Shown: positions 39,491-60,663 of the stretch, piece after piece | Position numbering within the stretch: the stretch's first letter is position 1 | Layout: each line of letters starts with the position of its first letter | Origin: Bdellovibrionota bacterium | Lineage (GTDB): Bacteria; Bdellovibrionota; UBA1018; CAUJDS01 | Assembly: GCA_963169695.1 (NCBI GenBank) | Contig: CAUJDS010000011.1 | Span: forward strand, 121,499 to 185,498 | Reading direction: 5' to 3' | DNA length: 64,000 bases | The notes under the pieces: generated by a model | Told to the model about the DNA's origin: nothing | The model's input: the letters and a program-made list of their open reading frames with translations, nothing else | Databases searched by the model: none | Made by a program: the position numbers and the translations under genes

Positions 39491-39973
39491 ATGAAGCAAA
39501 GCCTTTTATCTATTATGCTTATTTGCTTTCTTATGGCATGCGGAATGGAGCCACCGCGCGAACGAAGTGTGGTCACTGCTGAATCGCAGGCCGCCACGTC
39601 CAAAATTCAACTTCGACCTTCGCCCTATGACCTTGCTTTTGCCAATCATCCACTCCGAATGAAGCTTAAATGGAGCAACCCTCTTCAGCGAGGGAGTGAT
39701 TCCACTCTCGCTTTTTTGTTTTATCAAATTCAAGATCAAGACCTTGCAGACCCATGGTCCCATCCAAATTTCGAAATCGAGTTGGTTCGAGCGGTATCAT
39801 GCTGCGGAAAGGAACTCCCCTTGGGGCGCACCCTCCATCCGGATGCACAGGGTTGGTACCAAGCTGGAACCATTGCGGTAGCCACCGCAGGATACTGGAC
39901 ATTTACGTTAGTACTAAAGGACTCTGATGCGCAGATCGTAGATCAGCTAACCTTTGAAGTGGAGGTCCGATGA
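39491..39973 (+). CDS. Lipoprotein, function unknown
   Basis: A start at the internal Met gives 'MKQSLLSIMLICFLMACG', which is a lipobox. Confidence 0.4.
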   Translation: MKQSLLSIMLICFLMACGMEPPRERSVVTAESQAATSKIQLRPSPYDLAFANHPLRMKLKWSNPLQRGSDSTLAFLFYQIQDQDLADPWSHPNFEIELVRAVSCCGKELPLGRTLHPDAQGWYQAGTIAVATAGYWTFTLVLKDSDAQIVDQLTFEVEVR

Positions 39974-40884
39974 TTCTATTATTTCTTAAGCTTTGGACCC
40001 TTCTTTCGTGGGGAGCCGCATGTTGTGGTGGTGGAGCAAGCTACCCCGGACTTCTCACCACCCCGTCGTTTGCACAGCTTAGCCTCTCCACCTCTATGAG
40101 CAGTGTGGCAGCTCGACGGGACGTACGAGACGGAAAAATTTATGACACGGCAGCGTGGGATTCCGACCAAACTCAGACACTGCAATTGGCTTCTGCTTTT
40201 CTGCTCAATCAGGATTGGCAGGCGGGATTTCGAATACCGCTAACTCGGCACTCCCTCCAAGTAGACCAAACCAAATCGCAAAGCCTTCAGCTAGGTGATA
40301 GCTTTGCCACGGTAGCTTGGGAATACTGGCCCACTTACGAATACAGCAAAATCAAGCCTCGCGGATTTGCCTTTGCGGAAATTCGAATTCCATTTGCTAA
40401 TTCTTTCTACGACTCACGTGACTCCTTGGGATCGGATATCGTGGGATCCGGACAATGGGAGCTTGCACTCGGCAACCTTTGGCTCAAGGAGTGGGGAAAA
40501 TCCATTGATGCCAGCTTCGGCATACGTGGCGGATTGATCCTTCCTCGAACTTTTGAAGAGCGCCAAAATTTACGGCTTCCTGCCCACTTTGGCCTTAGTA
40601 CCAACCTAGGACTGGGCTATTCGCCAGGAGGTGGTCGATTTCGAATTGGTGCGGCACTTGCGCCGAATTGGGAACAAGGCTTTGAAACAGAATCGCAGCT
40701 TGGAAAGTCGGATCAGGCAGAGCGTTTCCACTGGAGCACAACGTTGAAGGTCAATTACCTGGTAGGAGAATCGCTCTCTACCGAATTGAACTACACGGAC
40801 GAAACGCTGGTACGAATCGGCACTCGCCAAGTTGCCCTATCCAGAACCGTAGGACTTCAATTGCTCTATCATTGGAATTTGTAG
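39970..40884 (+). CDS. Putative outer-membrane beta-barrel protein
   Basis: ATGA overlap with the previous gene. Signal sequence present. Alternating amphipathic strands run to the end '...VGLQLLYHWNL'. Confidence 0.4.
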   Translation: MILLFLKLWTLLSWGAACCGGGASYPGLLTTPSFAQLSLSTSMSSVAARRDVRDGKIYDTAAWDSDQTQTLQLASAFLLNQDWQAGFRIPLTRHSLQVDQTKSQSLQLGDSFATVAWEYWPTYEYSKIKPRGFAFAEIRIPFANSFYDSRDSLGSDIVGSGQWELALGNLWLKEWGKSIDASFGIRGGLILPRTFEERQNLRLPAHFGLSTNLGLGYSPGGGRFRIGAALAPNWEQGFETESQLGKSDQAERFHWSTTLKVNYLVGESLSTELNYTDETLVRIGTRQVALSRTVGLQLLYHWNL

Positions 40885-41094: not shown

Positions 41095-42747
41095 ATGCGA
41101 TCGGTACGATGGTTCATAAACAAAGTTTTCATAGCTTTTTCCTTTTTTGGAATACTAGCCACGGTTGGCACCTCGTCGGTTCAAGCGCAAAAGCCTGTAG
41201 AAGATCCAACTTTGCGGACACCTGATCTCTCTCAATGCCTTAAACAAGCGAGTGACGCCGGTGTAGAAATTTTTTTGATGCCCGAAGACCACAGTGACGG
41301 AATTTGCGCAGGACATCGCTTCATTTGTGAAGCTGGCGCCATAGCTGGAAAATCTATCCACCTTGCAGAAGGATCCGCATTTGACCCTAAAGAGGGTAGG
41401 GCTGGAATCACGGGATGGGAAGGACCACGCTCCTCCTACGAATCGAGTTTGTATTTAACAAACCTCTATATTCAGCCTTTGAGTTCGAGGTCCAAGTTAT
41501 CTCAACGCACCATGCTTCAAAGTCCGCAAATAAAAGAATGGCTTTGGGATATTTTTTCTCAACTCAAGCAGGAGGACGTGGAACTGTTGACTAAATTTGG
41601 TGCGTCAAGACCTCAACTTCAACAGTCCGATCTTTGGAAAGAATTAACTGTGTTTCTGAAGGATCACGACCGCAGTCTACTTGAAGATCGTTTCTCTAAT
41701 GGCCTACTCGTACCAAAGAACGACACAGACCACGAAAAAGAAATAACGGTTGCCCTTCTGAAAGCAATCATCAAGAATCCAGCAGAGAGTTCTCAGGTTC
41801 TATCAGCGCTCATGGAGCCTTTAGTAAAAAGCGTTAGTTCGCAAGCGGGGGGGGCAATAGATCCTTATACTCTTGAAGGCTTTCAACACTTCGTTGGAAT
41901 AAGGAGAAACAAGTTTGCCTCGCAGTCAATCTTAAGAGCGGCGTGCATAGCAGCCGAAAAAGGACTGAAGCGAGTCACGGTCCAAATGGGTTGGGCGCAT
42001 ACCGCCGGCATATTTGAAGAACTTCAAAAGAGCCTAGCAGCCTACTCAGCTCCAATTGGTATTAAGGTTGAGCATGGAATTCACAGGCTTGCTAGACTTG
42101 GCGATCAGACTGGCTCGTCATCAAATAATTTCACAGCCTCAGAATCTGCCAATCCTATGAATTTTATGGAAATTTCTCAAAAAATTGAGCAAGAACGCTT
42201 AGCGAAACTACCAATGCCAGAGGTGACATTTAACCCATTCGATACGCTTGGCTTCATCATCGAGCAATATGCATTGAAAAAGAACGAATCACCACTTCCA
42301 ACCAAAGAAGAGGTAATCGCGGAACTTCAGAGATCACTCCACAAAGAGGGCAATGAAGGAAATAAAGCAATCGTGAATGATCTTATCCAAACCCTTACTA
42401 TTTGCCCGGCTCCATCCGAAATTCTAGAACAAGGAAGACCCAATGCGGAAGCACTTAGAAAATATGTCTTAGATCTCGTGGGTAAAATCAATGCTGGTGC
42501 TCTCAAAAATGGTACCATTCGCAGCGAGAGCTGGGCCAATGACATCCTACCTCATATGGGCTTAGATTGTAGAGATGCTGCAATGGTCCGCAGGACAGGT
42601 GAAAACCTCCTCTCTTACTACCGAACCTTGCTCAAACCTGAGCCAATTTCAGATGCTACGCTTAAATCAATAGTAAGCGACGTCAAAAACAGCAATGATT
42701 TTTGGCAGATTCAGAAAAGCTTTTCAACCTCGACCAAAGCTAAATAA
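41095..42747 (+). CDS. Hypothetical secreted protein (550 aa)
   Basis: Signal peptide 'FSFFGILATVGTSSVQAQ'. No family was recognised. Confidence 0.45.
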   Translation: MRSVRWFINKVFIAFSFFGILATVGTSSVQAQKPVEDPTLRTPDLSQCLKQASDAGVEIFLMPEDHSDGICAGHRFICEAGAIAGKSIHLAEGSAFDPKEGRAGITGWEGPRSSYESSLYLTNLYIQPLSSRSKLSQRTMLQSPQIKEWLWDIFSQLKQEDVELLTKFGASRPQLQQSDLWKELTVFLKDHDRSLLEDRFSNGLLVPKNDTDHEKEITVALLKAIIKNPAESSQVLSALMEPLVKSVSSQAGGAIDPYTLEGFQHFVGIRRNKFASQSILRAACIAAEKGLKRVTVQMGWAHTAGIFEELQKSLAAYSAPIGIKVEHGIHRLARLGDQTGSSSNNFTASESANPMNFMEISQKIEQERLAKLPMPEVTFNPFDTLGFIIEQYALKKNESPLPTKEEVIAELQRSLHKEGNEGNKAIVNDLIQTLTICPAPSEILEQGRPNAEALRKYVLDLVGKINAGALKNGTIRSESWANDILPHMGLDCRDAAMVRRTGENLLSYYRTLLKPEPISDATLKSIVSDVKNSNDFWQIQKSFSTSTKAK

Positions 42748-45641: not shown

Positions 45642-46727
45642 TTATTTTTCCTTCTTCTTGGGGCGACATCGATTATAAATTTCTACCAACTGAGCTTCCG
45701 TCAATTTCAATTGAGCCAGCTGTTTTCGTTCAAAATCCGTCATAGCCAAGACACGTTTGGACATTTCGAGGACCTTGCCCTCGGCCAAGCGATTGGCAAA
45801 ATACAAAGTCAGGGCTGCCCGATAGAGACCCTGATCCTCTGTTTTTAAATAAAAAGGCTCTCGAAAATAGTGCACCGCTTTGTCCAAGCCAGCGAGTGGC
45901 GCAAAGTGCCGAACCACAAAGGAAGCTATTTCGTTATGACTGACGCCATAGGACCGCTGCTCCAATCTCAAAACTAGCTCGGGCGCCTTTTCAAATAGCG
46001 GCTCTGTTTGTTTTTCGTATTCCTTCCAAGGAAGTTTTTGAGATCCATTCGCATAGTTGGCAAATAGAAGGAACTTGGCCACTCCAATAGCGAGCGACGC
46101 CGCATACATATAGTCCTTCAAAGGAAACTCAGGGGCCCGCTTAGAGATTTCGTAGGAAAGCTGCGCAACCATGAGGTGCTTTTCGTATTGTTTGGTCGCT
46201 TGTTCTTGCAACGACGCGGACCAGGCGTTTTTTTTCTTGAATGGAATATCGATGAAATCAAAAAGCAATGCGCCATAGTACGCTTGCTTAAAGCTCATGA
46301 CCTCTTTGTCTTCCAAGAGATCGTCAATCACTGCTGCACGAGGTAGAAACTCTTCAATTCGTGGATTGTAGGTATCAGTATCTTTACGCGGCAATTGCCC
46401 CTTCATCATCCGCATTTTTCGAAGGGCACAGAGAAGGTTACGACACCCCTTCTTTCCAAAGAAGGCCAGAAACCTCACCGGCTTTTCGAGCTTTGTTGAG
46501 CCTTCTGCGTCATCATCCTTAAGACTGGACTTGCCCTGCCCTAACTTTGCCTTGAGGTACCGCTGAAAGAAATGCCGATACATAGGATTCGAGGCGAGAT
46601 CTTGCGCCAGCGTGTCATCTGGCGTTTTGGCGTCCTCGTAATCTAATAGATAGGCTTGAACCGTATCACCCAGATCTAGTGCTGGAACCAGATCATAAAT
46701 GAGCGGTGAATAAACAGAATTCCCCAC
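45642..46727 (-). CDS. Hypothetical protein, possibly a signal-transduction HD-related (HDOD-like) protein
   Basis: It is contiguous with the ferredoxin gene on the same strand. No strong motif was seen. Confidence 0.3.
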   Translation of the reverse strand: MGNSVYSPLIYDLVPALDLGDTVQAYLLDYEDAKTPDDTLAQDLASNPMYRHFFQRYLKAKLGQGKSSLKDDDAEGSTKLEKPVRFLAFFGKKGCRNLLCALRKMRMMKGQLPRKDTDTYNPRIEEFLPRAAVIDDLLEDKEVMSFKQAYYGALLFDFIDIPFKKKNAWSASLQEQATKQYEKHLMVAQLSYEISKRAPEFPLKDYMYAASLAIGVAKFLLFANYANGSQKLPWKEYEKQTEPLFEKAPELVLRLEQRSYGVSHNEIASFVVRHFAPLAGLDKAVHYFREPFYLKTEDQGLYRAALTLYFANRLAEGKVLEMSKRVLAMTDFERKQLAQLKLTEAQLVEIYNRCRPKKKEK

Positions 46728-46790: not shown

Positions 46791-47198
46791 ATGGACACGC
46801 TAGCAAAAAATATTATGAGTACTGAAATCATAAGCATCACGCCAGACACCCATGTGGAGGAGGCGCTGAAAGTACTGGTGAACAACAAAGTCACGGGACT
46901 ACCTGTGGTAACCGACAGCGGTAAATTTGTCGGAATCCTTTCAGAACTCGATATTATCGAGCAAATCATGGCAAGCAAGACTTTGGATGATGTAGACTTT
47001 TCCGAGGAAATCCACTTTTCAAAGAACATTACTTCCGTTCAAGAGACAACGACACTGAAGGAAGTTCTTGTCTTGTTTGCAGAATCCAAATTCAGACGCT
47101 TGCCCGTTGTGAATGGCAAAGGACGACTCGTTGGAATCATTACACGACGCGATATAATGAGACTCCTTTTCTATCGCGCCCGAATGGGACGTGAATGA
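46791..47198 (+). CDS. CBS-pair domain protein
   Basis: Two CBS motifs: 'IISITPDTHVEEALKVLVNNKVTGLPVV' and 'GKGRLVGIITRRDIMRL'. Confidence 0.8.
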   Translation: MDTLAKNIMSTEIISITPDTHVEEALKVLVNNKVTGLPVVTDSGKFVGILSELDIIEQIMASKTLDDVDFSEEIHFSKNITSVQETTTLKEVLVLFAESKFRRLPVVNGKGRLVGIITRRDIMRLLFYRARMGRE

Positions 47199-47869
47199 AA
47201 CTTAGAATGGAAGATAAGGTCGGTGTGCGGATCCTTCACATCGAAGGCGCGGTAGATGCACATCAATTCAGTGTTATCCGCGCTGGAATGGTCAAGATTC
47301 TCAAGAACGGTAAAAATAAGATCCTTGTGAACTTTGAGTCCTCCGCTAACGTGGATCAAGATGCCATTCGCCAAGTCAGCGAGCTCAATGCTGCTGCCCG
47401 AGAGCTTTCTGGCGAAATTGTCTTGGTGATGAGTGACCCGAAGATGCGCGGCTTAGTAGAGAATTTTTCTAAACCCCCACTGGTCATGTGTTTCAGTGCA
47501 GTACAAGAGGGGCTCGATCATTTCAACAAGTCGAAGGCTAAGGCTGCCCCGGAGCCCGAAGATGCTGCGACGAAGAATGATGAAGAACTGCTCAAACAGA
47601 ACCAGACCCTGAAATCCGAAGTCGAGCAGCTCCGAAAGCAGCTGACCGAAACCTCCAAGGGTGAGGCCAAAAACGCTAAGGACGAAAGCACGCGTTCCAA
47701 AGGCCTTTTAGAAAAGCTTGAAATTGACATAGAGAAGCTCCAGTCAGGAAGGCGTGTCGCTCCAGACGCAGAGACCTATGAAGCCAAGATAGGTCAATTG
47801 GAAGGCCGGATTCACCAGCTCGTGGAAGAACTCAAGACCCACCAAAATGACAAGCCTAAGTCCCCGTAA
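47195..47869 (+). CDS. STAS-like (anti-sigma-factor-antagonist-like) domain protein with a coiled-coil C-terminus
   Basis: ATGA overlap with the CBS gene. The N-terminal region 'VGVRILHIEGAVDAHQFSVIRAGMVKILKNGKNKILVNFESSANVDQDAI' is STAS-like. The C-terminal half is heptad-rich. Confidence 0.45.
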   Translation: MKLRMEDKVGVRILHIEGAVDAHQFSVIRAGMVKILKNGKNKILVNFESSANVDQDAIRQVSELNAAARELSGEIVLVMSDPKMRGLVENFSKPPLVMCFSAVQEGLDHFNKSKAKAAPEPEDAATKNDEELLKQNQTLKSEVEQLRKQLTETSKGEAKNAKDESTRSKGLLEKLEIDIEKLQSGRRVAPDAETYEAKIGQLEGRIHQLVEELKTHQNDKPKSP

Positions 47870-47934: not shown

Positions 47935-48978
47935 TTGTTTTATTTTTGGGGGACGTCTGTGAAGCGACTACGCTGTCGGAAAAATTCCGAAATTCTGCGC
48001 TCGAACTCGGGCTACGCCATGCTGCAAGCCGCGCTAATCCTTTCTAGCGTTGCCTACCTCATCCATTGGGCAGGCGAGTCCGTAATCAACTCCATGAAGC
48101 AGTCTGCCAACGCCGGCCTCAACGTTGCCCTAACTCGCGACGAAGTCACCATGAACAATATGGCAAGCTACGCCCCTATTTGTTCGCGGTCCTTTGACTT
48201 TGGTGAAGATTTTCCAAAACTCGCTCTTTCGGAGGAGTCAAGGCAAAGCATCAACGTCAGAATTCTGAATCCGTATTCTACCACCGCGGCTACCGGTAAT
48301 GAAATTTTGGCTGAGACTGGATTAGTCAAACCAGAGGGATATCGCTACACACAAGTCATCATGAAACCCGCTCAAGAGGGCGGAAGTTTCATACCTTTTG
48401 CTCCATTCAATACTCAGTGGGAAACCAGCGCCGGAAAACTCACCTACAACAATGGAAAATTCAGCCTCCCAACTGGAGATCTCGCCGAAGGTCGCCAGAT
48501 CAACATCATCGACTCGGCCACCGGAGAAATTTCTGATACGGTGGTTCTCAATTCCAGCATCCTCTATCGCACTGGCAGTTCCGGAAATGGAATTCCTGAC
48601 TATGCCCTTCCTCCTTTTGCCGTACCAAGCAATGTTGCTTCGACCTTTGCCATCCCCATCCAACTCATCATCGAAACCCAGGCTATTAAAAAAGCAATGG
48701 GTGTATCCGCCAATCGAAAAAGAAATTGGCTGCTTACCCTCCAGGTTCAAGCAGACCCCGATGGAGTCGTAAAAGTCTTAGGCTGCTTTGATCCTGCCGC
48801 CAATGTAGCGGCCAAAACGTGCCTTCGCGTAGGTGGAAAGCCCACCAATACCGGATGTAGTTTTACGGATTATTACAACAACCTAGCTGAATCGATTTGT
48901 CGATCCAACGGAGGATTCTATGGGCCAGATAAGCCGGGCGACTCTTCCAAGCCATCAGCGTGTAGAAGGAGAACCTAG
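47935..48978 (+). CDS. Type IV pilin/pseudopilin-like protein (minor pilin candidate)
   Basis: A basic leader is followed by 'NSG|YAMLQAALILSSVAYLI', a prepilin-peptidase-like cleavage context with a hydrophobic N-terminal helix. A GTG at ~47959 may be the true start. Confidence 0.45.
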   Translation: MFYFWGTSVKRLRCRKNSEILRSNSGYAMLQAALILSSVAYLIHWAGESVINSMKQSANAGLNVALTRDEVTMNNMASYAPICSRSFDFGEDFPKLALSEESRQSINVRILNPYSTTAATGNEILAETGLVKPEGYRYTQVIMKPAQEGGSFIPFAPFNTQWETSAGKLTYNNGKFSLPTGDLAEGRQINIIDSATGEISDTVVLNSSILYRTGSSGNGIPDYALPPFAVPSNVASTFAIPIQLIIETQAIKKAMGVSANRKRNWLLTLQVQADPDGVVKVLGCFDPAANVAAKTCLRVGGKPTNTGCSFTDYYNNLAESICRSNGGFYGPDKPGDSSKPSACRRRT

Positions 48979-50502
48979 ATGAATCCCCTTATCAGTCAGC
49001 GCGGATTCGCGGCCATTGAAGCTTTGATCGCTGCTGCGGTTTTACTCACTGCGGCTGCTGCAGTAGGAACTTTTTCACAATGGTTCGGAAATACCAATAA
49101 ACGAATTTCTGACGCCAATGATATCAGTAATTTTGCATCCGATCTGACTCGAATTGCTGGATTTCCAGCGACTTGCTCCAGCGCCCTCCCACCCAATCTC
49201 TCCTATAATTTAGAGTCCGGAGAAGTCTCTGGCATCGTGATTTTGGATCCCAGTCATCCTGACATCAACCACCCGCGGTACGACGTAGGAAAAAAGGTAG
49301 GAAAGCATCTTCAAATTTCTGAAATCACACTCAAAGTGATCACTCCTCCTCCTGTCACAACGAATTTCAGTATTGGCGCTGATGGAAGCGCGACCTTTAT
49401 AACTTCTCCTACCCCTTCTTGGGTTATTGCAGGCCATACACTTGCCAATGGTCAGTCTTACACCTCAACATCTACCGGCATTCGATACATTAATATTGAC
49501 CAAGCTTTATACAAGCAGGAACTCGGTGTTGGAGGTGGTGGCGGAGGTGGAGTTGGTACGCCCGATGCTATGAGAAATCCGCACTTAGAAGACCCCCTTT
49601 ATTTTACCTGGCAACCTAGGGTTATTGCTGTTGTGGCTGCTACGGAAGGTGGCTCGCCACCCCCTGAGGGAGAAGGTGGCGGCACCGTCTATACGGTTAA
49701 CGACCAGGTGACAAGCCAGGAAGCCCTTACTGCCAATCCCGTTGCCAATGTGGCAATGACATTAGTGGCAACTGCGCCAAACTCCAAATTTACCGTACAG
49801 GCCAAATTAGACGCTTCCGTTATTGATACGCGCACTCAACAATTGACCCGAAAAGTGAGTCAAACCATCTATGTCGACATTGAAGCTACGGGCAGTACTG
49901 CCATACTAAAAGGCTGCTCCCAATGGTCAGGCCAAATTGCCAGTACAGTCTGCACCACTGTAGGTGGCATCAAAACGGCATGGGGGGCTTGCGATCGTTC
50001 TTCGTTCTATCGAGAAAAAATCTATCAGCCACTTTGTGCCGCATACAATGGCACCTTTCAGCCACCCAATGGCAGCGGTGTTGGAGAATGCCAGTTTGGC
50101 AATACGAGTTTCCGCGGAATTGCGATGGCCTCTTGCACAAAGAATGAAGACTGTGAATCGGGCGTATGCGACCCCAAGACTCTGCAGTGTACAGGTACAT
50201 TGACTTGTAAAGACTCTGGCGCAAGCTGCGACCCTGCGGCACCAAACAACGACGGCTGTTGCTCCAATCAGTGCCGAGAAAAGGAACAAGGATCTGGTAC
50301 GTTTCAATGCGGAAAACGAGATGCTGGAATATACGGCGCAGCTTGCAGCGACAACTTTGACTGCACTTCCAATAATTGTACTGAACAAAATTACTGCGGG
50401 CTACCGCTTTGCGTTGCTGTACAGGGTACCTGCAATAAAAGTTCGGATTGTTGTGCCGGCAATACCTGCCAAAATGGAGCTTGCAGGCGGCCTGAAATTT
50501 AA
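48979..50502 (+). CDS. Prepilin-type N-terminal cleavage/methylation domain protein with a Gly tract and Cys-rich C-terminal domain (putative pilus-tip or minor pilin adhesin)
   Basis: 'MNPLISQRG|FAAIEALIAAAVLL' is the canonical G|F...E5 prepilin signature. A 'VGGGGGGGVG' tract lies mid-protein. The last ~150 aa hold about 24 Cys in repeated modules: 'CTKNEDCESGVCD', 'CSDNFDCTSNNC' and 'CNKSSDCCAGNTCQNGAC'. Confidence 0.7.
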   Translation: MNPLISQRGFAAIEALIAAAVLLTAAAAVGTFSQWFGNTNKRISDANDISNFASDLTRIAGFPATCSSALPPNLSYNLESGEVSGIVILDPSHPDINHPRYDVGKKVGKHLQISEITLKVITPPPVTTNFSIGADGSATFITSPTPSWVIAGHTLANGQSYTSTSTGIRYINIDQALYKQELGVGGGGGGGVGTPDAMRNPHLEDPLYFTWQPRVIAVVAATEGGSPPPEGEGGGTVYTVNDQVTSQEALTANPVANVAMTLVATAPNSKFTVQAKLDASVIDTRTQQLTRKVSQTIYVDIEATGSTAILKGCSQWSGQIASTVCTTVGGIKTAWGACDRSSFYREKIYQPLCAAYNGTFQPPNGSGVGECQFGNTSFRGIAMASCTKNEDCESGVCDPKTLQCTGTLTCKDSGASCDPAAPNNDGCCSNQCREKEQGSGTFQCGKRDAGIYGAACSDNFDCTSNNCTEQNYCGLPLCVAVQGTCNKSSDCCAGNTCQNGACRRPEI

Positions 50503-50514
50503 TGGAATCACCTC

Positions 50515-51750
50515 ATGAACCCTAAAAGGATTTCATTCAACTCCGGTCAAACACTCCTACAAACCGTCGTCGCAATGGGCGTCATGAGTTTCGTCGCAGC
50601 TCTCATGATGGACTATACGTTTCGAGAATCTGCCAACGTCCAATCACAAATGGAACGTACTGCGGCAGTCGATGGAGCCGGTCAACTCGTCGATCTAATT
50701 CTTGAAAATACCAATGCCTGCACCTACGCACTTCAGGGGCAATTCATAACCTCCCCGCGAATTCATCTCTTTACCCAAAACACCAAGACTCAAGACCCAA
50801 GTGCTCGCCTACCACTGTATTGGCAGGGACAGAAACTTTCTCCCAATTGGAGAATCACGGGCCTTTCTTTTACTCAGGGAGTCCCAGACGGCATTATGTT
50901 AGACACCACACCCGTCAATGCCTACGGAAGGTATCAACGGAATAAAGCCGAAATATCCGATCACTGGCCATTCAAACTCACGCTAGAGACTTACGTTGCA
51001 GATGGTAGCTATCTAACGCTCAACCCAACAACCCTGAACTGGGAGCATCGGGACAATGGAGATACCTTGCTTGCTACTTTTATCAATACATCGCAAAATA
51101 TCGTGCTCTATGATGGAGCTCCGGGAGCCAAGACTACGATCTATCGACCCGGACCAAGCGGCTCGGGGCTTATGGTTCATCAGATCGGAATCTACTATCT
51201 CCCAAAAAATACCTCTGCCAATAGTGGAGTTGTCAAACTTGAAGACGCGCTTGTGCCCCAACCCATTCAGAACACCGCTACGACGCTGAACCTTCAAGTC
51301 ACCCGTACGGGCATTGGCACCGGAATACCACAGGTCAATCATGCTACCCCTGTCAATCTCACAGTCGTAGCGGGAGCCCAGATTCTCTGGTGCAATGCCT
51401 TGACTCAGGGAAATAAGACCGTGAATCAAATCGCCTGTGAGCAAGTAAGTGGTGCTTACTCTGCAGTCAACGACTCCTGCGACACTACGTGGAATAAAGA
51501 CTTTATGGCACTCTATGCTTGCGGTACTTTGCCCACTAGCGTCCGCAATGTGGTCGTGGATGGGAAGCAGACCAACACCTGTTTCGAAATGTTTTCTCCT
51601 TGCTATCGAGATTGGTGGATCGACAAATGGAACCGCTATGGCGCCGACATCCTCACCTCCAATTCCATTCCGCTAGAAATCCTAGGAGAGTTTATGGCCT
51701 ATGTATCCATCTTTGGACTCAATGTCTGTCCACTAGCTGCCGGCGGCTAA
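50515..51750 (+). CDS. Type IV pilin/pseudopilin-like protein (PilW/PilX-like minor pilin candidate)
   Basis: 'MNPKRISFNSG|QTLLQTVVAMGVMSFVAAL' is a prepilin-like leader followed by a hydrophobic helix. Confidence 0.5.
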   Translation: MNPKRISFNSGQTLLQTVVAMGVMSFVAALMMDYTFRESANVQSQMERTAAVDGAGQLVDLILENTNACTYALQGQFITSPRIHLFTQNTKTQDPSARLPLYWQGQKLSPNWRITGLSFTQGVPDGIMLDTTPVNAYGRYQRNKAEISDHWPFKLTLETYVADGSYLTLNPTTLNWEHRDNGDTLLATFINTSQNIVLYDGAPGAKTTIYRPGPSGSGLMVHQIGIYYLPKNTSANSGVVKLEDALVPQPIQNTATTLNLQVTRTGIGTGIPQVNHATPVNLTVVAGAQILWCNALTQGNKTVNQIACEQVSGAYSAVNDSCDTTWNKDFMALYACGTLPTSVRNVVVDGKQTNTCFEMFSPCYRDWWIDKWNRYGADILTSNSIPLEILGEFMAYVSIFGLNVCPLAAGG

Positions 51751-51751
51751 T

Positions 51752-52840
51752 CTAGAACTTTGCTATTAAATCGAGTTGAATAGACTGGGACGGAATCCGA
51801 GCACTTCCCAACTCATACCGATAGTGAAGAAAACTTCCCTTAAAGTCGACTTTGTCAAATAAGCGATAAATACCAGAAAGCTGATAGCCCTTAAGTCCCG
51901 TGCGCATATTGAAAAGATCGGAACTACCAAATGCTCCAATAGCAGAATCCGGCGCCTGAGAGAGGTAGGCAATTTTTGCGATCCAATCACCTTTTTCGTG
52001 AAGTTCTCCGCACTGAATTCCAAAGTAAATGCCCTGATCACCACCCTTTGCTTGGTTAATGATCCAGTCCGAAAACACACTCCACGTTCTGTTGATCAGC
52101 TCGAAGTGTGCATCCACTCCAAGATTCCATACTCGATAATCGTAGAGGTACCGACTATTGCCATCCGTCGAATTGCCATAGCTCTGAGTCGTACTCGCTA
52201 GAAGCGAATAGCCTTGTATCTGCATAAAGTGAAAATAGTTGGCACCGATCGATATCCAAGGGCCCTGGACTCCCACGGAGGCATTGAGGTAAGCAGAATC
52301 TGCGGCAAACTCTCGCTCCGAAATCCAATAGCCACCGAACGAAGAGAAGATTCGCCAATTCAGTGATTCCGAGGCGAGGTATCCGAGCGAGATTCCTTCG
52401 GGTGTTGTATCTGAATCAAAAACCAACTGAGAATCATGGGCGCGAAAAAAAGGCATAGGCTGTTTTCCAGCTCGAACCTTCCAACGTGCTTCACCCTCTT
52501 CATGAAATTCAAGGTAAGCCAAATCAAGGTAGATGGACTTCTTGCTAGCGGAATCACCGAGCGTCACAAAGGAAGACCCACTCAACCCTCCGGCCGAAGT
52601 CGTAAGTCCAAATCCAAGTCTCCACTGAGAAGAAAGCTCTGGAAGCAATGAACCTCGCAGTTTTATCTGATGGAGGCTGCGATTTCTTTGGCCTTCCTCA
52701 TTCTGATATTGCTGACGATAGGTAAACTCACCCGAGGCATGAAGCTTCTCTGCCCACGAAAAATCCTCAGCACTCCATACTTGACTTGCTCCTACCAATG
52801 CAATTGCGCCTGCAATCAAACTCCAACGTCGGATCATCAT
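51752..52840 (-). CDS. Outer-membrane porin, probably Pho-regulon (OprO/OprP-like) phosphate porin
   Basis: A start at the internal 'MMIRRW' gives the signal peptide 'LIAGAIALVGASQVWSA'. The beta-barrel pattern ends in 'LIAKF' with a C-terminal Phe. It lies directly downstream of phoR on the same strand. Confidence 0.5.
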   Translation of the reverse strand: MMIRRWSLIAGAIALVGASQVWSAEDFSWAEKLHASGEFTYRQQYQNEEGQRNRSLHQIKLRGSLLPELSSQWRLGFGLTTSAGGLSGSSFVTLGDSASKKSIYLDLAYLEFHEEGEARWKVRAGKQPMPFFRAHDSQLVFDSDTTPEGISLGYLASESLNWRIFSSFGGYWISEREFAADSAYLNASVGVQGPWISIGANYFHFMQIQGYSLLASTTQSYGNSTDGNSRYLYDYRVWNLGVDAHFELINRTWSVFSDWIINQAKGGDQGIYFGIQCGELHEKGDWIAKIAYLSQAPDSAIGAFGSSDLFNMRTGLKGYQLSGIYRLFDKVDFKGSFLHYRYELGSARIPSQSIQLDLIAKF

Positions 52841-52853
52841 ACATTTAGGTTTC

Positions 52854-54650
52854 TCATGCACTTGGGCGCGAGTGAAGCTGGATTTCAAAAGTACTTCCTT
52901 TTCCCAAGGTGCTTTCGACCAAAATCTGGCCCTGATGAGCCGCGGCAATATGCTTTACAATGGCAAGCCCCAATCCAGTGCCACCCATGGTTCGGCTACG
53001 GGCCTTGTCGACTCGATAGAATCGCTCAAAGAGTCTCGGCAGATGCTCGGGCGCAATGCCAGCCCCTTCATCCCGAACATAGACGCGAACCCACTCACCA
53101 TCATGCTTGGCCGAAATCCAAATCGACTTTCCAGAATCCGAATATTTCAAAGCATTATCCACCAAATTGATGATCGCTTGCTCCAATAGAGGCGGATTCA
53201 TCCAAGCAGTCAAACCTTCCATTTCTTCGATATGAATGGCAATCTGCTTTTGTCTTGCCTTGCTCTGACAAATTTCCACCGCGGAAGAAAGAACGGGCCT
53301 AAGCTTCTCAACCCTGAGTTCAATCTCCAGGTGATCGACATCACGCTCAAGCCGACTGAGCGCCAAGAGATCTTCGATGATAGCGCCCAGTCGATTGGTA
53401 TGTCGACTCATGATTTCTAAGAATTTTCTCGCTGTCGCAGGATCATCCAAGGCACCTTCCATAAGGGTTTCAACAAAACCTTTGATAGACGTCAATGGCG
53501 TACGCAATTCATGCGAGACATTAGCGACAAAATCTCTTCGATGATTCTCCAGCTGTCTGAGCCGCGTAATATCATTAAAAACAAAAACAGCTCCCGATCG
53601 TTCTCCCTGGCCCCCAATCAACGGGGCGCCATGAATTTGAATGGACCTTAGGTGGGTACCAAGTATTTCGACTTCGGATTCAATCGGAAAAAGCCCTTCC
53701 CCGACGCGTTGAAAAAAATCGATCAGGACTTCATTCTTTAATAGTTCTCGCGCCTCTTTGCCAGTCGCAGAATCGAGGTCCACTTCAAGAATTTCGGCTG
53801 CTGCTTGATTGATATGAAGGATCAAGCCCTTTTGATCAATAGCCATCAACCCTTCCACCATACTAGAAAGAATGGCATGAATCTCATTTCGCTGAGAAGT
53901 GACCGTTTGGATGCGCTGATTGAGCTGGGTCGATATGCTTTGAATGGCCTCACCCAATAAGACCACCTCTTCGGGAGCACCTTCCATAAGCTCCATCTCA
54001 CTTCCGAAGTCGCCATGAGATATTTTCCTAGCTTGGCTTCGAATGATTTCAAGCGGCTGCGTGATCTTCAACGAAACTCGCCAGGTCACGGCAGCAATGA
54101 CCACGACAACAAATGCTGTACCTAAGAAAAATAAAAGAAAGAGCGACCGTAATGCACTCGATATAGAAACCAAGGGCACGGACACACGGACAACCGCTAC
54201 CGGCGATCCTTTAGGAGCCTGAGTAACCCTTAAGGCTAGGTACATGGAGTCTTCATGAACCGTTCCACTAAATCTTACCGAGCGACCCACCCCACCACTT
54301 TTGAGAGCTTCCTGAATTTCTATACGCGCGAGGTGATTATCCATCCGAGAGGGATCTTCGCGAGAATCGGCCAAGACACTTCCGTCCACAGCTAGTGCAG
54401 TAATGCGTGTCTCCGAGGCATGCCCCAATTCCTTCACCAGCGATTGAAGCTGCTGGGTACTCTCCCGATCCACCGAGGTCAATCGCGCTACTACTAGGCT
54501 CGCCCTAGCTTCTAGGTCTCTGGCCGTTTGGGTGATGTAGAAGGATCGAAAGCTAAGGTAGGCAATTGAAAAAAGCGCGGCTACTGCGGTTACAGAAATA
54601 ACAAGATAACGAAAATAGAGTTTCCAAAAAAGGCGCCGCCCACCGATCAT
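52854..54650 (-). CDS. phoR: Phosphate-regulon sensor histidine kinase
   Basis: Two N-terminal TM segments, a PAS-like region and the H-box 'HELRTPLTSIKGF'. The HATPase_c motifs are 'VDNALKYS', 'DEGAGI' and 'GGTGLGLAIVK'. Confidence 0.8.
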   Translation of the reverse strand: MIGGRRLFWKLYFRYLVISVTAVAALFSIAYLSFRSFYITQTARDLEARASLVVARLTSVDRESTQQLQSLVKELGHASETRITALAVDGSVLADSREDPSRMDNHLARIEIQEALKSGGVGRSVRFSGTVHEDSMYLALRVTQAPKGSPVAVVRVSVPLVSISSALRSLFLLFFLGTAFVVVVIAAVTWRVSLKITQPLEIIRSQARKISHGDFGSEMELMEGAPEEVVLLGEAIQSISTQLNQRIQTVTSQRNEIHAILSSMVEGLMAIDQKGLILHINQAAAEILEVDLDSATGKEARELLKNEVLIDFFQRVGEGLFPIESEVEILGTHLRSIQIHGAPLIGGQGERSGAVFVFNDITRLRQLENHRRDFVANVSHELRTPLTSIKGFVETLMEGALDDPATARKFLEIMSRHTNRLGAIIEDLLALSRLERDVDHLEIELRVEKLRPVLSSAVEICQSKARQKQIAIHIEEMEGLTAWMNPPLLEQAIINLVDNALKYSDSGKSIWISAKHDGEWVRVYVRDEGAGIAPEHLPRLFERFYRVDKARSRTMGGTGLGLAIVKHIAAAHQGQILVESTLGKGSTFEIQLHSRPSA

Positions 54651-54656
54651 CGAATT

Positions 54657-55349
54657 TCACGATTCTCGAATACGATAGCCAACACCCCGCACCGTTTCCA
54701 AATAATCTCCCGCTGTGCCCAACTTCCGGCGCAGTCCTACGACATGAACGTCAACTGATCGATCCGTGACGGGATAATCCTCGCCCTTGATAGCATCCAC
54801 AATCTGAGACCTCGTAAATACCCAACCTGGACGGCTGACAAGAAACTGCAGAAGAGAAAACTCTGTATGGGTCAATTCGATCTTTTCATGATGGACTCGC
54901 ACTTCGTGCTTACCGATGTGGATCACAATTTCGTGGTAACGAAGTTCATCACCGGGTGTTCCATCCACTCGATTTCTACTGCGCCGAAGCACAGCCTGAA
55001 CTCTTGCCATAGCGATTTTGGGACTAAAGGGCTTGGTGATATAGTCTTCGGCTCCTGCTTCAAGTCCTCTTACGATATCCTCTTCTTCCCCTCGAGCGGT
55101 TACCATAATGATAGGGATTCCTGCCGTCGAAGGCTCTGACTTGAGGTTGGCGCAAACTTCAATGCCATCAAGCCCTGGAAGCATAATATCCAGAAGCACT
55201 AAATCTGGCTTCTGCCTTCGCACTTGAGAAAGACCGGCCTCGCCTGAAGCCGCCCACATTGGAGTATAGCCATTTTTTTTGAGGTTATAGCTGAGCAACT
55301 CAGCAATATCCTCTTCGTCCTCAATTACTAAAACCTTTTTGTTTTCCAC
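54657..55349 (-). CDS. phoB: OmpR-family response regulator PhoB
   Basis: Receiver domain 'KVLVIEDEEDIAELL...LVLLDIMLPGLDG'. Winged-helix C-terminus 'LETVRGVGYRI'. Confidence 0.85.
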   Translation of the reverse strand: MENKKVLVIEDEEDIAELLSYNLKKNGYTPMWAASGEAGLSQVRRQKPDLVLLDIMLPGLDGIEVCANLKSEPSTAGIPIIMVTARGEEEDIVRGLEAGAEDYITKPFSPKIAMARVQAVLRRSRNRVDGTPGDELRYHEIVIHIGKHEVRVHHEKIELTHTEFSLLQFLVSRPGWVFTRSQIVDAIKGEDYPVTDRSVDVHVVGLRRKLGTAGDYLETVRGVGYRIRES

Positions 55350-56177: not shown

Positions 56178-56558
56178 CTAACGATCAGGGTCATGACGGG
56201 TGGAGGATTTTTCTACGCCACGTTCGTAGCGCTTTTCTAGGACCCGTGCTCCCGACTCGTCGAATTCAACCCAATCACCTTGCTTTTTGCCCATGTAAAA
56301 TTGACCTTCGAGTCGAATTTTTTTATTCGTATCTAAGTAACGATATTCCCCATGGTTCACGATCTGACCCGATGCGTCTTTCACTTGAAAACAAGTTTGA
56401 TCCCCATCAAACCTTATTCGCCAACGCGTGTCACCACCTTCAGCACAGGGACGAGTGATCGCACAACCCGACAAAAGTTGGCAGACTCCTAAGACACTAC
56501 TGATTCTGCAAATCCACTTCATTTGAGCTACTCTATCTCTAATCTCGGGGGTACGCAA
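56178..56558 (-). CDS. Lipoprotein with MORN/YwqK-like repeats
   Basis: Lipobox 'LLSGC'. 'GEYRYLDTNKKIRLEGQFYMGKKQGDWVEFDESG' is MORN-like. Confidence 0.45.
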   Translation of the reverse strand: MRTPEIRDRVAQMKWICRISSVLGVCQLLSGCAITRPCAEGGDTRWRIRFDGDQTCFQVKDASGQIVNHGEYRYLDTNKKIRLEGQFYMGKKQGDWVEFDESGARVLEKRYERGVEKSSTRHDPDR

Positions 56559-56603
56559 AATGCTGCAAATCGACAGGAAGCGGAAACAACGTCCGCTGGG
56601 TCT

Positions 56604-57227
56604 ATGAAGTTTTGGGATCTTTCCCCGATGATCAGCGAGCGTATAGCGGTTTTTCCGGGAGATCAGGTCTTCACTCGAAAATGGTCGATGAGCACGTTAG
56701 CGGAGGGTCACCTCACTTTATCTAGCATTCACACGACGCTTCATCTTGGCGCGCATGCTGACGCTCTCAATCATACTGAGGTTTCGCACGAGGGAATTGA
56801 TCAACGGAGTCTCTTTCCCTATTTTGGTCCATGCCAAGTTTTGGAGGTCGACCTTATTCCCGGAACGCGAATCTATCCTGACCATCTAGGAAACAAAGTC
56901 CTCGAAGCTCCAAGGATTCTGTTCAAAACCCATTCTTATCCCAATCCAGAGCAGTGGAATGAAAACTTCAACTCACTCTCTCCCGAGCTGATTGACTTCT
57001 TAGCCCATCAAAAAATCTGCCTTGTTGGCATCGACACACCATCCGTAGATCCGTGGGATAGCAAAGCGCTAGAAAGCCATCACGCGCTGAACCGTCATCG
57101 CATTGCCAATCTCGAAGGTCTCGTCCTCACAGACGTCAAAGAAGGACTTTACACGGTTTCGGCCTTTCCGCTAAGGATAGAGGGCGCTGATGCATCTCCC
57201 GTTCGTGCGGTGCTCATGCGCGAATAG
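56604..57227 (+). CDS. kynB: Kynurenine formamidase (cyclase family)
   Basis: 'WDLSPMISERIAVFPGD' and the metal-binding 'TTLHLGAHADALNH' (HxGTHxDAPxH type). The start is taken at the internal Met to avoid overlap with the convergent lipoprotein gene. Confidence 0.75.
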   Translation: MKFWDLSPMISERIAVFPGDQVFTRKWSMSTLAEGHLTLSSIHTTLHLGAHADALNHTEVSHEGIDQRSLFPYFGPCQVLEVDLIPGTRIYPDHLGNKVLEAPRILFKTHSYPNPEQWNENFNSLSPELIDFLAHQKICLVGIDTPSVDPWDSKALESHHALNRHRIANLEGLVLTDVKEGLYTVSAFPLRIEGADASPVRAVLMRE

Positions 57228-57235
57228 GAGTTTCC

Positions 57236-58447
57236 ATGAATTTCACCGATTCCTTGAGTCACGTGCGCAATCAATTTCATATCCCCGCCGGTAAAATCTA
57301 TTTCTGTGGTCACTCGCTCGGCCTTCAACCCAAAACGGCCGAAGCGTCCGTACTAACTGAGTTGGAAAGTTGGAGAGAAATTGCCATTCGTGGCTTCACG
57401 CAAGGCAAGAATGCTTGGGCAAAATACGTGGAGCCCCTTCGCGAAACTCTGGCGCCGTGGGTGGGGGCATCCGCTTCAGAAATAGGGTTTATGAATACCC
57501 TCACTACCAACCTTCATATTTTATTGGAGGACTTCTACCAACCCACCTCCGAGCGATTCAAAATTATGATCGAAGACCGCGCATTCCCCTCGGACCAGTA
57601 CGCGCTCGCCTCGCACCTACGATTGCACGGATTCGACCCCGAAAGTGCTTTGATTCGAGTCAAGCCTCAGCAAGGCACTTACGCTATTACTGAAGAGGAT
57701 TGGACACGCGCTTTTCAACAACATGGAAACAGCATCGCGTTGGTATTGATCGGTCATCCCAATTACCTAACGGGTCAGGCCTTCCCGATCCCTTTCCTTC
57801 AACAACGCGCTAAAGAATGTGGTGCTATCTTCGCGCTAGATCTAGCCCACGGTGTCGGCAATTTGGAATTAAGCCTTCACGACTGGCAGGTCGACTTCGC
57901 AGTCTGGTGCAACTACAAATACCTCAATGGCGGCCCTGGGGCAGTCGGTGGCTACTTTGTTCATGAGAAGCACGCTCATAGAAGCCGCAGCCATCGCTTA
58001 GAGGGATGGTGGGGAAATCGTGCAGAAACGCGATTCGAAATGCGCGATACGATCGATGCAGATTCTGGAGCCAATGGCCGTCAGATCAGCACTCCTAACA
58101 TCTTGTCACTGGCTTCACTTCGTGCAGGACTCGATATTTTTTCGAAGCTAGATCCAAAGGCTTACTTTAAAAGAAGACTTCAACTTACAAGCCATTTAGA
58201 AAAAGGTCTCTTAGCCCTTCAAAGCAAAGCCTTTTCTATTATTACGCCTTCAGATCCTTCACAGCGAGGCGCCGCGTTGACTCTTTTTTTTCACAGTGAC
58301 GCTGTTCCAGTAGAAGCGAAGCTCTCGGCCGCGGGAGTACTCTGTGACTTTCGAAGGCCCAATATGATTCGCGTTGCACCATCACCACTTTACACAAGTT
58401 TTGAAGAAGTCGATCGCTTCTGCGAAATACTTAAGAGCTGCATTTAG
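57236..58447 (+). CDS. kynU: Kynureninase
   Basis: 'IYFCGHSLGLQPK' and the PLP region 'DFAVWCNYKYLNGGPGAVGGYFVHEKH'. Length 403 aa. Confidence 0.85.
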   Translation: MNFTDSLSHVRNQFHIPAGKIYFCGHSLGLQPKTAEASVLTELESWREIAIRGFTQGKNAWAKYVEPLRETLAPWVGASASEIGFMNTLTTNLHILLEDFYQPTSERFKIMIEDRAFPSDQYALASHLRLHGFDPESALIRVKPQQGTYAITEEDWTRAFQQHGNSIALVLIGHPNYLTGQAFPIPFLQQRAKECGAIFALDLAHGVGNLELSLHDWQVDFAVWCNYKYLNGGPGAVGGYFVHEKHAHRSRSHRLEGWWGNRAETRFEMRDTIDADSGANGRQISTPNILSLASLRAGLDIFSKLDPKAYFKRRLQLTSHLEKGLLALQSKAFSIITPSDPSQRGAALTLFFHSDAVPVEAKLSAAGVLCDFRRPNMIRVAPSPLYTSFEEVDRFCEILKSCI

Positions 58448-58537: not shown

Positions 58538-59872
58538 ATGGGGATGGGGATTGGGCGCATTGCGGCGCTTTCTTTTTTGGCATTTTCTTTTTCGAATTCA
58601 TGGGCAGCTCCTTCTTTGGAGAAAACACCCCTTCACTTTCCAGCAATTCAGCCAAGCACTTTACCGTCCAGTATTGGCTCTTGCCCAATAACTGGCGTAG
58701 CGCCGGATTTAGTGAGTCCCTGGGGAATATGGAAAGTCAAATTCATCGACATGGACGGCGACTTCATCGTCATTCACTATCAAAACACTAACGCTCCCAC
58801 GAGTCGCCCAGGATTTTTTAAGAACTTCATCATTAGTTGGCATAAAGCCGCTGGACTTGCGCCGTGGATTGTCTACGGCGGAAATGAAAATATCCAATAT
58901 CCTCGCATCAGCTCTTTGGGACACGTAGCCTTTCGGCATACCCAGGCTATTTCGCCCAATAATACCTTCGTGGAGGAGCAGCTCGTTGTTTGTCCCTTGG
59001 ATTTCAATCGAGGACTTGGGCAGTTTGATCCCTATGCGTGTGGCAGTGACCCTACACAACGAATGCTAGTGGAAGCCAAGCCCTACAATCAGCAGCTAGC
59101 CGGAATACCCAATTCCACCACGGACGGCGATCTCACTTCATGGGATTGGAGCGGAGACTACTTGGCCTACGGCCATAGCAGCATTAGCCAATACAGCGCA
59201 TTCCTCAGCGAATGGTACCTCCCTACCTCTACGAGTAACCTACTGGACTCAGCTCCTCCCCGTGCAGCGGTTTCCATTGCAAGTTACAATGGCGGTCGTG
59301 CAATGGGTTACTCATGGCTCTTTGCAAGTGGAACAATCTTTACACCTGGCTTCTCAATTCAAACGGGCTACTCCGCATCTTATCCAACCGGGACAGCCTT
59401 AAATCAGATGATCAATTATCATACAGAAACAACCGTCCCCGGAAGCTATGCCCTATTTTCTACGAATGCGAATGCATTCTTTTTTATCGGTGGAGAATGG
59501 CATCAAGTCTATGGGACCAGGGCTTCGGCAACTACCTACGGAAATCAGCTCAACTATCATTCTTCGGCCAATAACTATGCAACAACGACTGCAATCACTC
59601 CGTTGAGTTCCACCACCACAACTTACTCTCATCCGGTAAGGACCCAGTTTCAAGGAAATGAATACTTGCTCTTTGAAGCGCGTCCTCAGAATGGACCCGC
59701 ACGTCTAGATTTGTATCAATACAACTCTAGCTACTTTTTTGATCGAAGCATCACGGCATCCAGTCCCTTTACGGGCATCTTTATTCGGGGAGTTTCAGAC
59801 AATGTCATTTTAGCTCTTCAGTCGAACGGAAACGCTTCCTTCGACCAATACGCACTTCTTAAATGCCACTAG
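58538..59872 (+). CDS. Secreted protein rich in Ser/Thr/Tyr/Asn, function unknown
   Basis: Signal peptide 'ALSFLAFSFSNSWAAP'. The C-terminal half has low-complexity Y/S/T/N content. Confidence 0.45.
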   Translation: MGMGIGRIAALSFLAFSFSNSWAAPSLEKTPLHFPAIQPSTLPSSIGSCPITGVAPDLVSPWGIWKVKFIDMDGDFIVIHYQNTNAPTSRPGFFKNFIISWHKAAGLAPWIVYGGNENIQYPRISSLGHVAFRHTQAISPNNTFVEEQLVVCPLDFNRGLGQFDPYACGSDPTQRMLVEAKPYNQQLAGIPNSTTDGDLTSWDWSGDYLAYGHSSISQYSAFLSEWYLPTSTSNLLDSAPPRAAVSIASYNGGRAMGYSWLFASGTIFTPGFSIQTGYSASYPTGTALNQMINYHTETTVPGSYALFSTNANAFFFIGGEWHQVYGTRASATTYGNQLNYHSSANNYATTTAITPLSSTTTTYSHPVRTQFQGNEYLLFEARPQNGPARLDLYQYNSSYFFDRSITASSPFTGIFIRGVSDNVILALQSNGNASFDQYALLKCH

Positions 59873-59883
59873 GAATCTAATCT

Positions 59884-60663
59884 TTAGTAAAAATTCGACG
59901 TCATTTGCATGGCGTGTTCGGTGATGTAGGACATTAAGAAATCCTCTTGAGACTTCTGAATCTTTACAAAACTGGCGCCAGCTCTCAGACCATCGGGTCC
60001 AGGTACCGTGTTTCGAATGACAAGATCGAGGCTGATCTCTTGAGAGCGAATGGTAAATCGAAAACCACGAATAACCCGATTCGAAAAAAACTCACTCTTC
60101 CATTCCGCCGGAATGAAAAAGGAAAGTCCGCCCACACTGATGTCATAAATGGTCGAGCGAGTTTCCTCATTTGGTTTCTCTTTGGTAGGGTTGGGATGAG
60201 GATAAATACACTCTACACTATAGGCTTTTGGAATCGTCAGTCGTAAATCCTTGCGCCGTTGTGCTCGATAGACCTTATCACGCACCTGTAGAACAAAAAG
60301 TCCTTCCTTGAGCTTCTTATCCACAAAGATTTCAACTTGAATTCCATAGGCCACCTGTTTGGGAAACATCACCATTACGAAAGCATAACGACTTGGTGCT
60401 TCCGCAAAGGCCTTATAGGCTTCTAATTCTTTTTGATCGGACCGCAAATCGACGACGAACTGATTTTCTTTATTTTTGACGGTGGAAACGTACTTGCCGT
60501 GAAGGACAAGCTTCTTTCCCTCTGTCCATAGGATGATGCCAGCGTGAATGCTCTCCGCCCTCAAAAAGAACGCCTTCACCTTGCCCGGATCTTCTACAGG
60601 CACAAAGCGTTGATGAGTCGAGTTCTTTACTTGGAGATCAAACTGGGAACGCCCCTGAGACAT
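59884..60663 (-). CDS. PilZ-domain (YcgR-like) c-di-GMP-binding protein
   Basis: 'RRKDLRL' gives the RxxxR motif and 'DISVGGLSFF' gives the DxSxGG motif, in the order expected for a PilZ domain. The N-terminal region is a YcgR-like beta barrel. Confidence 0.6.
   Translation of the reverse strand: MSQGRSQFDLQVKNSTHQRFVPVEDPGKVKAFFLRAESIHAGIILWTEGKKLVLHGKYVSTVKNKENQFVVDLRSDQKELEAYKAFAEAPSRYAFVMVMFPKQVAYGIQVEIFVDKKLKEGLFVLQVRDKVYRAQRRKDLRLTIPKAYSVECIYPHPNPTKEKPNEETRSTIYDISVGGLSFFIPAEWKSEFFSNRVIRGFRFTIRSQEISLDLVIRNTVPGPDGLRAGASFVKIQKSQEDFLMSYITEHAMQMTSNFY

Follow-up and report, generated by a model that had tools for sequence, protein, structure and literature searches.

A putative minor-pilin set of three paralogous proteins, one with a cystine-rich C-terminal module, in a Bdellovibrionota genome

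Modular type IV pilins are exemplified in Streptococcus sanguinis by PilB, with a vWA (von Willebrand factor A) module, and PilC, whose module is a lectin. The recorded proteins of this kind exceed 1,200 and fall into 264 architectures, and many more carry modules that lack a database signature (PMC8179133). Minor pilins also form heterotrimeric tip complexes, such as PilA-PilB-PilC of S. sanguinis (PMC9934059) and GspI-GspJ-GspK (discussed in PMC8179133), and in Myxococcus xanthus the KilL/KilM/KilN Tips of the Kil Tad pilus are encoded in three-gene minor-pilin clusters away from the machinery (PMC12075869). Here, we describe three genes, p1, p2 and p3, from a Bdellovibrionota bacterium (assembly GCA_963169695.1, contig CAUJDS010000011.1, positions 121,499 to 185,498); the 64,000 nucleotides analysed are called the window, and all coordinates refer to it unless stated otherwise. 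We read the products as a lineage-specific, heterotrimeric minor-pilin set that includes a modular pilin, p2, and that primes or tips a type IV filament whose own genes lie elsewhere, and give this reading a probability of roughly 0.55. Three-gene minor-pilin tip sets (PMC12075869) and modular pilins (PMC8179133) are both established, and provide the precedent for it.

The three genes are adjacent and co-oriented on the + strand within 47935-51750, as the first-pass annotation had stated, and they form one operon. We read them as such because they are tightly packed, face the same way and have a Shine-Dalgarno box inside an upstream gene: the TAG stop of p1 directly adjoins the ATG of p2, an AGGAG box lies within the 3′ end of p1, and p2 and p3 are separated by a gap of 12 nt. 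The open reading frames (ORFs) on the minus strand inside the three genes are taken to be shadow ORFs, since it is the + strand proteins that are conserved in a second genome.

That second genome came to light when p2 was compared exhaustively, with phmmer, to 1.84 billion representative proteins; a single relative was returned (P0004, 448 aa, E value 2e-9). This protein, hereafter q2, is encoded in the metagenome-assembled genome GCA_054034315.1, on contig JBPNLY010000202.1 (7.7 kb; 39% GC; locus L005), in a cluster of the same layout, where q1 has 330, q2 448 and q3 402 residues. BLASTP pairs the two clusters one-to-one, with E values of 4e-10 for p1 and q1, 1e-14 and 8e-11 for p2 and q2, and 1e-25 over the full length for p3 and q3. 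The family is known from these two genomes only. Word-index searches of 5.8 billion clusters with p2, p3 and a p3/q3 profile returned only the queries themselves and q3, and the family alignments turned up no further loci in two scans of metagenome contigs and one of viral contigs. A scan of GTDB species-representative genomes anchored on the neighbouring histidine kinase gave one unrelated match and no syntenic relative, and neither PHROGs nor PDB sequence searches with each of p1-p3 produced anything significant. Three Logan assemblies match the window at 99.96-100% identity, and are therefore uninformative on selection.

The orthologous cluster also bears on where p1 begins. There are three candidate starts, TTG 47935, GTG 47959 and ATG 48019, and the gene call in the public assemblies uses the last of these, giving a protein of 319 aa. 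Judging from the alignment with q1 and from a GGGGGA box upstream of it, GTG 47959 is the likely start, rather than TTG 47935 or ATG 48019: the extra 18 residues that it provides (MKRLRCRKNSEILRSNSG) align with the q1 leader, with the R, L, I, S and G positions invariant. A start at ATG 48019 is disfavoured because it would delete this leader, which is conserved with the orthologue.

Profile comparisons support a common origin of p1, p2 and p3 as distant paralogues. With hhalign, p1/q1 matches p2/q2 over the shared C-terminal four-cysteine module (E value 1.5e-4), and p2/q2 matches p3/q3 over the N-terminal 120 residues (1e-4); the profile-profile comparison of p1/q1 with p3/q3 gives 5e-3. In the alignment of all six proteins, the invariant positions are the Gly at -1 relative to the proposed cleavage site, one Cys soon after the predicted helix, one further Gly and three of the four cysteines of a C-terminal module; when this module is aligned by itself, all four cysteines are invariant. 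It has no match in Pfam or the PDB. Counted from the proposed cleavage site, the first mature Cys is residue 57 in p1, p2, q1, q2 and q3 and residue 58 in p3. The numbers of mature cysteines are all even (6, 26 and 8 in p1, p2 and p3; 6, 22 and 8 in q1, q2 and q3), and the odd Cys of p1 sits in its leader.

All six proteins begin with a short hydrophilic leader ending in Gly, followed by some 20-21 hydrophobic residues; over the 21 residues that come next after the Gly, hydropathy averages 1.3 to 2.1. Taking cleavage after this conserved Gly (marked ↓), the N-terminus of p1 reads ...RSNSG↓YAMLQAALIL, with the mature protein starting YAMLQAALILSSVAYLIHW; that of p2 is MNPLISQRG↓FAAIEALIAAAVLL (mature start FAAIEALIAAAVLLTAAAAVG) and that of p3 is MNPKRISFNSG↓QTLLQTVVAMGV (mature start QTLLQTVVAMGVMSFVAAL). 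Their counterparts are ...SEAG↓FSMLP in q1, ISQKG↓FLTLE in q2 and KNQKG↓FTLFE in q3. A six-frame pattern scan of the 64-kb window for a leader Gly and hydrophobic tract near an ORF start found p1-p3 only. The first-pass annotation had described p2 as a 507-residue protein with a canonical G↓FAAIE signature, which is what the sequence contains, and had assigned prepilin leaders to all three proteins. That overstates the case: all three have the Gly at -1 and the hydrophobic tract, but p1 and p3 have degenerate motifs, and among p1-p3 it is p2 alone that combines Phe1 with Glu5. Across the six proteins, Glu5 is present in p2, q2 and q3, and is replaced by Gln in p1 and p3 and by Pro in q1; some genuine minor pilins, GspK being an example, have no Glu5 either.

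Family models point from these N-termini to pilins, although none of p1-p3 reaches a curated threshold. The N_methyl model PF07963 matches p2 at 13-14.4 bits, against a cut-off of 21.2, and does not match p1 or p3; TIGR02532 was reported for none of the three. The weak family matches that the p-protein N-termini do give are to pilin families only, namely N_methyl, ComGE (p3) and ComGF (p2). The q3 protein exceeds both curated thresholds, with 27.4 bits against 21.2 for PF07963 and 17.2 against 16.3 for TIGR02532. When a profile of all six proteins was compared with the PDB, Geobacter pilin N-domains were the first and third matches (E values 0.07 and 0.4), and the best of them, Geobacter PilA-N, aligned over the leader, the cleavage Gly and the start of helix alpha1. 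The earlier proposal of a minor-pilin or tip set is thus upheld as far as a pilin-like set is concerned, on the strength of the PilA-N match and the q3 scores, whereas the position in the filament is something that we infer only.

The main rival to the minor-pilin reading is that these N-termini are ordinary signal anchors or Sec signal peptides, that the proteins are membrane-anchored or secreted and rich in disulfides, and that the Gly...Glu pattern is vestigial or fortuitous. In its favour, and against our reading, p1 and p3 lack Glu5, p3 has Gln at +1 in place of an aromatic or hydrophobic residue, and none of p1-p3 reaches a curated prepilin-motif threshold. Neither the window ORFs that were scanned nor the second locus contains an ATPase, platform, secretin or prepilin peptidase gene, the families looked for being peptidase A24, PilB/GspE, PilC/GspF and secretin. 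The rival is further favoured by the second cluster, which continues with a Cys-rich protein that bears a plain Sec signal peptide. Against our reading, the globular parts match no known pilin family, and with two loci only, the conservation statistics are thin. AlphaFold2 did not confirm the pilin fold, with a mean predicted local distance difference test (pLDDT) score of 37.0 for p2 alone and 36.2 for p3 with a five-sequence alignment. Both models do place, at low confidence, a predicted helix of about 55 residues at the N-terminus and strands after it, and scores of about 36-37 make them too unreliable for fold comparison.

We nevertheless consider the signal-anchor explanation unlikely. 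None of the six proteins departs from the Gly, and the distance from there to the first Cys is fixed. One of the six, q3, scores above two curated prepilin models, half of them (p2, q2 and q3) have the G↓F...E pattern, and the best PDB matches of the family profile are pilins aligned with the cleavage site in register.

A second alternative is that the three proteins form the pseudopilus tip of a system like the type II secretion system (T2SS), an analogue of GspI-GspJ-GspK that loads or pushes secreted substrates. The group has the size of a heterotrimer, and one member, p1 or q1, lacks Glu5 in both genomes, as GspK does within the T2SS; the N-terminus of q3 also gives a faint GspJ match of 11 bits (cut-off 64.85). 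Yet there is no significant match to a Gsp pseudopilin in Pfam or NCBIfam, the cluster has no gsp genes beside it, its proteins exceed GspI and GspJ by far in size, and a bulky C-terminal Cys-rich module suits surface display better than a periplasmic piston, all of which leaves this alternative rather improbable. Least probable of all, at long odds, is that the three genes make up a Tip cluster of a Tad pilus, like the KilL/KilM/KilN (TadE/TadF/TadG) ones known from predatory bacteria, and would stand apart from the tad locus and serve in prey contact: the layout is similar (three separate minor-pilin genes, large variable C-terminal domains and many predicted disulfides), but no TadE/TadG-type Pfam match appears for p1-p3 at E ≤ 1 or for q1-q3 at E ≤ 0.1, the motifs G↓FAAIEA, G↓FLTLEV and G↓FTLFEV together with the N_methyl and TIGR02532 matches are of the type IV pilus (T4P)/T2SS type and not of the Flp/TadE type, an established distinction, and the predatory lifestyle of the host is an assumption.

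Of the 26 cysteines of p2, 25 fall within residues 313-502, in its C-terminal region. The first-pass annotation had noted Cys-rich modules here, correctly, with about 24 cysteines in the last 150 or so residues; the count in the last 150 is 21. Twenty of them belong to two tandem units of ten cysteines (Table 1). Each unit consists of a four-cysteine module, C-x5-C-x4-C-x5/6-C, followed by a six-cysteine module, C-x6-C-x5/9-CC-x3/4-C-x4/11-C. The four-cysteine modules of the two units are CTKNEDCESGVCDPKTLQC and CSDNFDCTSNNCTEQNYC, and their C-x5-C-x4-C-x5/6-C patterns start CTKNEDCESGVC... and CSDNFDCTSNNC..., respectively. The two units are alike only modestly above shuffles: their alignment scores 54 against 37 +/- 7, and 45 of 2000 composition-preserving shuffles reach 54. 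The orthologue q2 has four four-cysteine modules and no CC-containing module, a difference from which we conclude that the Cys array is evolving quickly.

The suggestion that these repeats are of a Myxococcus type, for which TIGR02232 was to be checked, found no support: full-length p2 has no NCBIfam match at E ≤ 1, TIGR02232 included, q2 has no TIGR02232 match in an NCBIfam scan at E ≤ 10, and the isolated Cys-rich region of p2 has no Pfam match at E ≤ 10. In the PDB, all eight matches of a profile of the four-cysteine module are cystine-knot proteins of the squash-inhibitor type (E values 0.05-1.7, not significant), and the second ten-cysteine unit aligns with DKK4 CRD1 (E value 2, likewise not significant). 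On their sequence, the p2 repeats weakly suggest a likeness of cysteine framework to knottins and Dickkopf-N, rather than membership of either family.

The poly-Gly run noted earlier in p2 is present, as G185-G191. It lies in a low-complexity insertion that is specific to p2, being absent from q2 in the alignment. A slippage-prone repeat was considered for it and ruled out by the mixed Gly codons and the absence of a tandem DNA repeat.

In the minor-pilin reading, each protein would be inserted in the inner membrane via its hydrophobic N-terminal segment, and a prepilin peptidase encoded elsewhere would cut after the conserved Gly. The globular parts would be oxidised in the periplasm; every mature protein has an even number of cysteines. 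The three N-terminal helices would then bundle into a heterotrimeric priming or tip complex, placed at the end of a type IV filament (a type IVa pilus (T4aP) or a T2SS-like one) whose machinery is encoded outside the window. Within this complex, p1, which like q1 and GspK lacks Glu5, would take the capping place that GspK has in type II secretion; p2 would be the modular pilin, its two tandem cystine-rich mini-domains making up a rigid C-terminal module that serves as the ligand-binding end. Observed directly were the operon structure, the N-terminal motifs, the paralogy, the synteny kept in a second genome and the framework of cysteines. We infer processing, filament assembly, trimer formation, tip position and binding function, and the part in prey recognition that the first-pass annotation had raised for a Bdellovibrio-like organism is likewise a candidate role.

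More tentatively, and with rather less confidence than we place in the reading above, the cluster may represent an undescribed family of three large paralogous pilins on a disulfide-stapled scaffold, whose heterotrimer shows tandem knottin/Dickkopf-like mini-domains at the end of the filament. Such cystine mini-domains could be a protease-resistant adhesin, or else an effector, inhibitor- or toxin-like, that is kept in contact with a target cell. On this more tentative reading, no earlier case would exist of a bacterial pilus that presents modules of the cystine-knot type.

Table 1. Coordinates of the cluster, of segments of p2 and of neighbouring genes (positions in the window; Cys, cysteines)
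Feature	Position	Strand	Remarks
p1, pilin-like	47959..48978	+	ORF list; GTG start with GGGGGA box; leader kept in orthologue q1; precursor of 339 aa, 18-aa basic leader MKRLRCRKNSEILRSNSG then ↓YAMLQ; no Glu5; 6 Cys in mature part
p2, modular pilin-like	48979..50502	+	507 aa; 9-aa leader; G↓FAAIE; 26 Cys; C-terminal Cys-rich module
Seven-Gly run G185-G191 of p2	49531..49551	+	Mixed Gly codons; within low-complexity insertion
Four-Cys module of p2 (C313, C325, C338, C353)	49915..50037	+	Common to all three paralogues and the orthologues
Two tandem ten-Cys units of p2	50134..50484	+	Residues 386-444 and 456-502; 20 Cys within 386-502
p3, pilin-like	50515..51750	+	411 aa; 11-aa leader; G↓QTLLQ; 8 Cys in mature part
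CBS gene	46791-47198		Upstream of cluster; Pfam
STAS gene	47195-47869		Upstream of cluster; Pfam
PilZ gene	59884-60663	-	8 kb downstream of cluster; Pfam

The cluster lies in ordinary chromosome: the window contains topA, leuS, ftsK, a photolyase gene, an ABC transporter, kynurenine-pathway genes and a PhoR/PhoB-type pair, and the GC content of the cluster is close to that of the whole window. Counts of promoter and terminator consensus sequences do not exceed the shuffled expectation, and an Rfam scan of the whole window gave no RNA family match. Pfam confirms the neighbouring genes that the first-pass annotation had pointed out, namely CBS and STAS upstream and PilZ downstream. A link to them is not borne out, as at the sole other known locus the cluster is flanked otherwise, by a FliG fragment, a divergent lipoprotein and the downstream Cys-rich protein with a Sec signal. 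CBS and STAS genes do not adjoin the second cluster, and no PilZ gene was seen in its 7.7-kb contig. The Cys-rich protein is encoded on the same strand as the triplet and after it (positions 5470-7032 of L005); it has 520 aa, a Sec-type signal peptide, 16 cysteines and no Pfam match, and there is no counterpart in the window.

Downstream of p3, whose stop lies 1 nt from that of a convergent porin gene, is a Pho-type module on the minus strand (51752-55349) that comprises this Porin_5 porin, a PAS-HisKA histidine kinase and an OmpR-type response regulator. Beyond it, at 56523-58447, a cyclase-family gene (possibly a kynurenine formamidase) adjoins a kynureninase gene, which suggests a tryptophan-degradation pair. 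Several sizeable ORFs near the cluster, of 304-774 aa, have no Pfam match (39970-40884, 41095-42747, 45642-46727, 58538-59872 and 60738-63062), and their number makes the genome seem rich in uncharacterised proteins. Elsewhere in the window, a protein of 1621 aa (74-4939) has an N-terminal M48 peptidase segment as its sole recognisable part, the other ~1500 residues being unannotated. Two paralogous AAA_14 and DUF4143 ATPase genes on the minus strand (9420-10595 and 13909-15060), about 3 kb apart, flank a DUF6973 protein (11936-13354) and several small ORFs. A protein of 529 aa encoded on the minus strand at 27909-29498 consists largely of ankyrin repeats; ankyrin-repeat proteins are uncommon in bacteria.

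If the minor-pilin reading is right, the cluster would add to the modular pilins and three-protein tip complexes an architecture in which all members are paralogues and the end is formed by cystine-rich mini-domains. Such sets can escape current family models: p1-p3 have no above-threshold match in Pfam or NCBIfam, and the protein collections that were searched yielded one relative only. Further, practical outcomes of this work are a corrected start for p1 and the uncoupling of the cluster from the CBS, STAS and PilZ genes near it.

The cluster can be set beside several described systems. Compared with the squash knottins EETI-II and MCoTI-II, p2 has C-x5-(D)C-x-S-G/N-x-C-x4-6-C where they have CxxDSDCxxGCxCxxxxxC, and the second half of a ten-cysteine unit (C-x6-C-x5-CC-x4-C-x4-C) has the same spacing as DKK4 CRD1, neither match being significant. 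Set against these likenesses are the E values of 0.05-2, the lack of a Pfam match at E ≤ 10 and the lack of a CC-containing module in q2. The T4aP set FimU-PilV-PilW-PilX with PilY1 has in common with this cluster that the minor pilin-like genes stand apart from the major pilin and motor genes. The comparison with PilV/W/X/FimU sets that the first-pass annotation had suggested shows these differences: the cluster has three genes and not four or five, neither locus has a PilY1-like gene next to the cluster, no Pfam or NCBIfam family of this kind matches (PilW, PilX and PilV in Pfam among them), and the cluster proteins are two to three times larger.

The KilL/KilM/KilN Tips resemble the cluster in their variable distal domains and many predicted intramolecular disulfides (PMC12075869), but they are homologues of TadE/TadF/TadG, whereas p1-p3 have N-termini of the T4P/T2SS type and no TadE/TadG match. 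With regard to GspI-GspJ-GspK and PilA-PilB-PilC, there is no sequence match, p3 also lacks Glu5, and the trimer of the cluster is a putative one; the likeness lies in three co-encoded pilin-like proteins, one of which (p1 or q1) lacks Glu5 as GspK does, while one carries a bulky extra domain. Unlike the modular type IV pilins, p2 has as its module an unannotated array of small cystine-rich units rather than a recognised domain, its pilin moiety is itself large (~300 residues) and matches no pilin family beyond the N-terminus, and all three proteins of the cluster are mutual paralogues. Like the modular type IV pilins, p2 is large for a pilin and is encoded beside other minor pilins.

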